Shown here in pieces: positions 36,381 through 36,470 of a stretch of 64,000 bases of DNA. The notes below the pieces were generated by a model. That model had not been told where the DNA came from. It saw only the letters and a list, made by a program, of their open reading frames with translations, and did not search any database. The stretch lies in IMG/VR virus record IMGVR_UViG_2541047857_000014, one strand, 5' to 3'. The position numbers were made by a program, and so were the translations under genes. The DNA comes from a virus. Lineage: Duplodnaviria > Heunggongvirae > Uroviricota > Caudoviricetes. Position 1 is the first letter of the stretch; each line of letters starts with the position of its first letter.

Positions 36381-36430
36381 CCATCATGGGGTGTCGGGGG
36401 GCGGAGGTTCAAATCCTCTCGTGCCGACCA
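36381..36430 (+). other. partial tRNA-Pro (3' ~47 nt only; att-type remnant, not an intact tRNA)
   Basis: catggggtgtcggggggcggaggttcaaatcctctcgtgccgacca matches anticodon-stem-to-CCA of tRNA-Pro(GGG) as recalled; no complementary 5' acceptor arm upstream. Confidence 0.7.
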
Positions 36431-36442
36431 AAAATCCCTTAA

Positions 36443-36470
36443 GAACCAGCCTATTATGGCTGGTTTTTTT
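36443..36470 (+). terminator. rho-independent terminator immediately after tRNA-Pro fragment
   Basis: gaaccagcc-tattat-ggctggtt followed by TTTTTTT. Confidence 0.7.

Follow-up and report, generated by a model that had tools for sequence, protein, structure and literature searches.

We found that a partial tRNA-Pro(GGG) sequence in an E. coli chromosome, together with the hairpin behind it, very likely represents the attachment site (attP) of a proL-integrating SfV-like phage, orphaned in a prophage that now uses another integrase at ssrA. The site is classified as an orphan or relic rather than as an active attP because its cognate integrase is absent and the integrase of the prophage is both unrelated and associated with ssrA. 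Judged by its sequence, the window (the whole 64,000-nucleotide stretch of DNA that was analyzed) is chromosome of an S88-like strain of the B2/ST95 lineage: positions 8000-39473 are identical to S88 (NC_011742.1), 12 differences are found near 7 kb, and the window starts just to the right of the intact ssrA of S88. Its features are listed in Table 1.

Table 1 Features of the window, from the P2-like prophage on the left to the SfV-like prophage on the right
Feature	Position	Strand	Basis or remark
P2-like prophage: ogr, tail and head genes, gpA-type replication endonuclease, CI, integrase	1-33490		Integrase at 31082-32101
ssrA 3′ fragment	33420-33490	+	attR of the P2-like prophage and formerly the left-hand ssrA repeat of its SfV-like neighbor; Rfam tmRNA, partial, E = 6e-11
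Left cargo module	33491-36346		Between the active ssrA att site and the orphan attP; starts with ~155 bp of ssrA-downstream DNA and terminator
PD-(D/E)XK gene	34070-34858	+	Left cargo module
Hypothetical small ORF	34946-35239	-	Left cargo module
GIY-YIG gene	35450-36223	-	Left cargo module
Vestigial, degenerate proL 5′ half: 5′ strand of the acceptor stem, D-arm (with indels) and 5′ strand of the anticodon stem	36347-36383	+	Alignment
proL 3′ 47 nt, core (identity block) of the proL-type attP	36384-36430	+	46/47 identical, unique in the window
Phage-borne hairpin resembling an intrinsic terminator	36441-36468	+	Terminator scan; 11 pairs, then a T-run
P′ arm and moron region common to proL-integrating relatives	36469-39473	+	98.7% identical to MLI107 (36373-39473)
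dinI-like pseudogene	36672-36889		P′ arm/moron region
DUF262 (GmrSD-type) gene	37275-39164		P′ arm/moron region
DNA-invertase fragment	39266-39388	-	P′ arm/moron region
SfV-like body: tail fibers, Mu-type baseplate, sheath/tube, HK97-type head, terminase, lysis, part of the early region	39474-64000	-	

The tRNA-Pro piece (TCATGGGGTGTCGGGGGGCGGAGGTTCAAATCCTCTCGTGCCGACCA) shares 46 of its 47 nt with the 3′ end of proL, the E. coli tRNA-Pro(GGG) gene. The match extends from the last two bases of the 5′ strand of the anticodon stem through the anticodon loop, the variable loop, the T-arm and the 3′ strand of the acceptor stem to CCA, so that the identity block runs from TCATGGGG to CCA; the sole mismatch is G36401 in the variable loop, where proL has T. 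At up to 3 mismatches this core occurs only once in the window and never in 100 shuffles, and the 101-nt stretch around it folds more stably than shuffled sequences (z = -3.3). ARAGORN called no tRNA and no tmRNA in the whole window, Rfam found no tRNA above the gathering score and listed none for a 201-nt search at E values up to 10, and the search upstream for a promoter dedicated to the piece returned only generic consensus matches at background frequency. The piece is real and partial, and it is not a functional tRNA-Pro gene. The first-pass annotation had described the last ~47 nt of tRNA-Pro(GGG), ending in CCA, with no intact tRNA at this place, and since neither ARAGORN nor Rfam finds one, this description stands. 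So does its view of the piece as an att-type remnant, as the same core also bounds the proL-integrated prophage of strain MLI107.

The 5′ acceptor strand and the D-arm, which had been thought absent, are in fact represented by a degenerate sequence. The 37 nt directly upstream of the core (TGGCACATAACAGCCCTTAAGATCGTAGCTCGCCA) align with the whole 5′ half of proL (positions 1-30) at 22 of 30 positions; 2 nt are deleted and 7 nt inserted in the D-loop, and the alignment score has a p value of ~4e-4 (5000 shuffles). This stub breaks one pair of the anticodon stem, and no tRNA fold is recognized in it by ARAGORN or Rfam; on the basis of the alignment, it can be read as a non-functional vestige on the P-arm-proximal side of the orphan attP. 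In MLI107 and in phages Flotzy and Eeyore, the P arms resemble the 5′ half of the tRNA only marginally (p 0.05-0.15). The two halves are unequally preserved, with 1 of 47 positions changed in the 3′ half and 8 substitutions plus 2 indels in 30 positions of the 5′ vestige. Because the 3′ half is so much better kept, simple neutral decay of a single old copy is insufficient, and the asymmetry calls for another cause, either selection in the past, on an attP that was active, or a recent recombination with active phages of the proL type. A near-perfect 3′ half next to a drifted 5′ half is what is expected of a tRNA-derived attP, since only the DNA to the right of the crossover joins the working tRNA and is hence selected.

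The hairpin (AACCAGCCTATTATGGCTGG), which is separated from the core by a 10-nt spacer, also points to a phage. By alignment, it belongs to the phage-side type found at the attL of MLI107 and in the attP of Flotzy and Eeyore, and the lone difference in its stem from the MLI107 attL is base 36444, at the foot of the stem as scanned. The type carried by Flotzy and Eeyore, AACCAGCC..GGCTGG, is also shown by the window, whereas the native proL terminators of K-12, of S88 and of the attR side of MLI107 are of the AACCAACC..GGTTGG type and unlike it. A strong terminator hairpin had been reported to follow the piece as it would a native tRNA gene; the hairpin is there, but it is of the phage type and not native. 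It is intact in all ST95-type copies and terminator-like by the scan, and transcription could still stop there.

The origin of the block became clear from its relatives. When 161 nt spanning the piece were used as a query, the native proL locus in ordinary E. coli matched at 86-88%, the match ending after the hairpin, and in a subset of strains a tRNA-Pro locus matched at 96%, with the match extending further. In MLI107, the order is yejM, intact proL, hairpin, dinI pseudogene, DUF262 gene, invertase fragment, tail fibers and baseplate. The 3.1 kb of the window from 36373 to 39473 are 98.7% identical to the DNA directly 3′ of the intact proL (L002:12001-15101), and the homology continues into the tail (and head) genes at 95-97%. 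At the far end of the MLI107 prophage, ~40 kb away, an integrase and one additional gene precede a perfect repeat of 47 nt of proL, beyond which come the native terminator and then yejO. The MLI107 prophage is a textbook tRNA-site lysogen: the regenerated proL has received its 3′ half and its terminator from the phage, and at the other end are the bacterial 3′ half that was displaced and, behind it, the native terminator. The unintegrated virion genomes of Flotzy and Eeyore contain, in order, an integrase (77% identical between Flotzy and MLI107), ~130 bp, the proL core (46 nt), the hairpin, a umuD-like gene, dinI, an invertase and tail fibers. In these relatives the block has the attributes of an attP, as it flanks the proL-integrated prophage in MLI107 and sits beside a tyrosine integrase in virions. 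The position of G36401 is a T in MLI107-type strains. No homology was found between the left flank of the window and the P arm of MLI107 or Flotzy. A further match was seen near the genome end of Gifsy-2 (NC_010393.1, 44256-44334), which is 91% identical to window positions 36396-36473 (the T-arm/acceptor part and the hairpin) and may, by this similarity, be another proL-derived att-like sequence.

The proL prophages of MLI107 and ACN001 thus share with the window the same core, hairpin, dinI pseudogene, DUF262 gene and invertase fragment. Unlike in the window, their core is the working 3′ half of proL at yejM, a proL-type integrase is present and a second 47-nt repeat lies at yejO. The first-pass annotation considered that the owner of the piece could not be decided from the window and proposed to locate the intact tRNA-Pro and to align the flanks. 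This comparison assigns the remnant to the SfV-like prophage on its right, through the 3.1 kb shared with MLI107. In S88, proL is intact and unoccupied (yejM-proL-yejO′-narP), 476 kb from the piece.

This SfV-like prophage is now delimited by ssrA. On the left, UTI89/S88-type prophages are bounded by an intact ssrA or an ssrA 3′ piece; UTI89 and most relatives lack the P2-like element and have an intact ssrA at the position of the fragment at 33420-33490. The integrase of the SfV-like prophage and the ssrA attR lie past the right end of the window. There, ~2 kb past the integrase and just before glaH, is a degenerate ssrA 3′ end (CGGGTTCAACTCCCGCCAGC) with a 5-bp deletion (TCCAC), behind which ~155 bp repeat the sequence that follows intact ssrA, including the terminator (UTI89 L004:20136-20315; S88 L014:13471-13652, with 90% over 188 nt). 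This att-flanking repeat is unusually long, ~180 bp at 90% identity. With ssrA repeats at both ends, the prophage is ssrA-delimited, and the tRNA-Pro piece is found within it, 2.9 kb from the left boundary. The UTI89/S88 prophage encodes a 390-aa integrase (WP_000531794.1) that is not related to those of the proL type in MLI107 and Flotzy, and among 80 viral-contig loci with the family of the 390-aa enzyme, the ssrA core was found downstream in 54 and the proL core in none. No proL-core direct repeats were found near the UTI89 integrase, the repeats there being derived from ssrA, and no proL-type integrase is encoded in the window. On the early-gene side, the homology between proL-type and ssrA-type prophages stops just before xis/int, which identifies the exchanged block as the integration module. 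The ssrA and tRNA-Pro remnants had also been taken together as a sign of successive integrations at this locus. Serial insertion did occur, since the P2-like prophage in ssrA adjoins the SfV-like prophage, but the tRNA-Pro piece is no trace of an insertion here, as it is inside the ssrA-bounded prophage.

The body of the prophage is that of the Shigella phages SfII, SfI, SfIV and SfV, whose structural genes match at 97-98% over ~16 kb of a 20-kb query. These four phages integrate at thrW. As phages with such similar structural genes use thrW, integration modules vary in this family. Like the window, they have a moron slot between attP and the tail-fiber genes, which in their case carries gtr genes; a search of phages with the proL core returned six records, none of them an Sf phage. 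In the window, the slot (34070-39164) is filled with nuclease-type, defense-like genes (PD-(D/E)XK, GIY-YIG and DUF262/GmrSD-type). The left cargo module is present as a unit only in ~113 ST95-like genomes, directly after the intact ssrA in UTI89, and had no match among deposited phages; a homolog of its GIY-YIG gene in TUM13936 (89% identical) proved to be cargo of an unrelated lambdoid prophage. The tail-fiber/invertase-associated stretch at 39474-41013 is an allele unlike those of S88 and UTI89, and the S88/UTI89 allele resembles the tail-fiber genes of the P2-like prophage (window 7385-8370) at 85-90%; the difference may reflect a fiber-gene exchange between the two prophages or cassette variation. 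The P2-like prophage itself has non-P2 cargo, namely, an AIPR-family ORF (12076-13776, +) and a 469-aa ORF (22642-24051, -), together with a 407-aa ORF between its integrase and attR (32106-33329, +). Its replication endonuclease is frameshifted in the S88 annotation, and it adjoins the SfV-like prophage in only ~5 of 5426 complete E. coli genomes.

The P′ arm is carried by ~249 of these 5426 genomes. The arrangement of the window at ssrA (S88/UTI89-like) accounts for ~113, and a second arrangement, found in 13 genomes (UK_Dog_Liverpool), consists of ssrA, two different small genes, a decayed copy of the site, dinI′ and tail-fiber genes. The UK_Dog_Liverpool copy contains TTATGGGG and shows 2 substitutions, including a C to T change in the T-loop; it has also lost 3 nt of the acceptor strand, and its hairpin is damaged. 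By subtraction, ~120 genomes would have the P′ arm behind an intact proL, those inspected being MLI107 and ACN001. We estimate from this number that proL, an attachment site for SfV-like and other coliphages, is occupied in ~120 of the 5426 genomes; the literature searched contained no specific description of proL in this role. A third relic was found in Citrobacter braakii ATCC 51113 (L100, NZ_NAEW01000001.1, locus 3594-3759), where stub, core and phage-type hairpin are 84.6% identical to window positions 36346-36512 (stub p ~3e-3, in a species-wide scan for a variant junction). On one side of this copy are chromosomal genes for an enolase-family protein, an FAA hydrolase and an MFS transporter, and on the other an EAL-domain gene and a DUF4376 tail-fiber-type gene. 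No tRNA and no integrase were found in the 8 kb examined there, and a 387-aa ORF that had been considered as an integrase is an enolase-family enzyme. The T-loop change is common to the UK_Dog_Liverpool and C. braakii copies, and all three relics have CCAT where proL has CCGT, which suggests a single old origin followed by turnover of the cargo to the left of the relic.

Several other matches were set aside. H143/H144, in which homology breaks 67 bp before the piece, and H147 were rejected as ancestral states, the former being an IS66 insertion and the latter an IS3 deletion derivative. A Serratia symbiotica match is the organism's own tRNA-Pro, an Azospirillum match is a chance 20-mer, and a Pluralibacter match has the core with no homology to the stub or the P′ arm. 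Viral contigs with the exact junction or stub were only UTI89-like prophage predictions and were uninformative. Two strains show mobile-element activity at the locus: 729_021014_1_4 has an IS66-family element between the GIY-YIG gene and the tRNA-Pro piece, and APEC E19019 has an IS3-mediated deletion from just after ssrA to the early region of the prophage. No active phage with the exact left stub beside a proL-type integrase was found.

The combination of these comparisons allows a pathway to be proposed. In active relatives, a tyrosine integrase would exchange strands at the anticodon loop of proL, since identity to proL begins no more than 3 nt from the 5′ edge of this loop in Flotzy, in MLI107 and in the window alike. 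The 47-nt tRNA 3′ half of the phage and its own terminator would thereby replace the bacterial ones, so that proL would stay intact, with the phage-borne hairpin terminating the reconstituted gene once the phage is integrated, and the displaced bacterial 3′ half would move to the far end of the prophage. We infer that, in the S88/UTI89 lineage, the block of xis, int and P arm was later swapped for an unrelated integrase, an ssrA-type attP and nuclease-type cargo. This exchange would have left behind the old proL core, the degenerate left stub, the hairpin and the whole right (P′) arm. The orphan site now lies between the ssrA junction and the tail-fiber genes, 2.9 kb inside the prophage. It is probably inert and drifting, given that the element contains no cognate integrase, and signs of decay are visible in G36401 of the window and in the substitutions, 3-nt deletion and broken hairpin of the UK_Dog_Liverpool copy.

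Other histories of the piece were considered. A proL-type phage could have entered a pseudo-attB in a resident ssrA prophage, with recombination then removing the proL-type integrase, in which case the stub would be target DNA. In the window, in UK_Dog_Liverpool, in the attR of MLI107 and in the attP of Flotzy, the points at the edge of the anticodon loop where proL identity begins do agree to within 3 nt, and the bases just to the left of this breakpoint resemble a core-type site. However, the shared breakpoint is weak evidence, since any attL or attR is by construction homologous only as far as the crossover; moreover, the stub aligns with the whole proL 5′ half, beyond a short core-type site, and its conservation together with the core in C. 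braakii, in a different context, fits better with a unit that travels with the core. We regard this history as improbable. It is very improbable that the piece is a former attL, caught by an aberrant, specialized-transduction-like excision in another host, whose 3′ half and P′ arm were later refreshed. Such a capture would account for the full-length but degenerate tRNA-Pro look-alike and for a 3′ half and P′ arm 98.7% identical to an active relative next to a 5′ half ~27% diverged. However, the stub matches no plausible functional proL, as it has indels in the D-loop and a broken anticodon-stem pair, the same asymmetry is expected of any active attP, and there is no donor genome to point to. 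Both origins are less parsimonious than an orphaned attP, and neither alters what the piece is.

The piece could also be a chromosomal scar, that is, a displaced attR-type 3′ half with its native terminator, left by an older element at the locus independently of the SfV-like prophage. Displaced 3′ tRNA fragments normally mark the ends of islands, as far as the Islander work describes them (PMC4383910), the ssrA remnant is only 2.9 kb away and tandem insertion at ssrA is real. Against this, a proL-containing query matches all 5426 E. coli genomes and lies 3′ of yejM at each inspected locus (K-12, S88 and MLI107), so that no proL gene belongs at this locus, and the S88 copy is intact. The hairpin is of the phage type, the right flank is continuous phage DNA that is found behind an intact proL in MLI107, and the piece sits inside the ssrA repeats of the prophage. 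Native proL downstream DNA is absent here, as is an intact tRNA-Pro at the other end of the element, and we consider a scar of this kind scarcely credible. Finally, a rearrangement between prophages at proL and ssrA was rejected because yejM-proL-yejO′ is intact in S88 and the left flank is neither yejM nor a working 5′ proL.

The orphaned attP is best compared with the phage sites of the anticodon-loop class. Integrators of this class include P4 at leuX and P22 and the Sf phages at thrW, and a framework for the sublocations of integration within tRNA genes, the anticodon loop among them, is said to come from Williams in 2002. As in other attP of this class, identity to the tRNA begins at the anticodon loop and extends as far as the 3′ end, the 3′ half and the terminator come from the phage, and a tyrosine integrase lies beside the attP in the active relatives (Flotzy, Eeyore and MLI107). 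Unlike them, the window has no cognate integrase, most of its P arm is gone, and its site is internal to an ssrA-using prophage and so marks no element end. Att sequences derived from tRNA genes are a well-known class among integrative elements, at least as the Islander work presents them (PMC4383910). As far as prokaryotic tRNA gene fragments have been described in one survey (PMC9897764), the piece resembles them in being partial, non-functional and tied to a mobile element, and differs from most of those catalogued, which are displaced halves at current island ends, in being an internal relic with a drifted 5′ vestige.

There is a small chance, judging from its sequence, that the orphan proL attP is still a substrate for proL-type integrases provided in trans by co-infecting relatives. 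The core, hairpin and P′ arm are complete, different cargo is found at the same breakpoint in two E. coli lineages, and the site is present in another genus. If it were usable, the orphan attP would be a second landing or exchange site, through which SfV-like phages could switch between proL and ssrA and swap the left cargo, and it could give rise to rearrangements involving the ssrA prophage and proL, 476 kb apart.

From a biological perspective, the finding is ordinary: it is a relic of phage module swapping and conventional biology, its less common trait being that the orphaned attP is internal, and current understanding is left unchanged. Its value is mainly one for annotation, as a tRNA fragment followed by a terminator is usually taken as an island boundary, and island finders that rely on such fragments could mistakenly cut this prophage in two or place a tRNA-Pro island at ssrA. 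Beyond annotation, the case documents the exchange of a whole integration module, of the proL versus the ssrA type, within one phage family.
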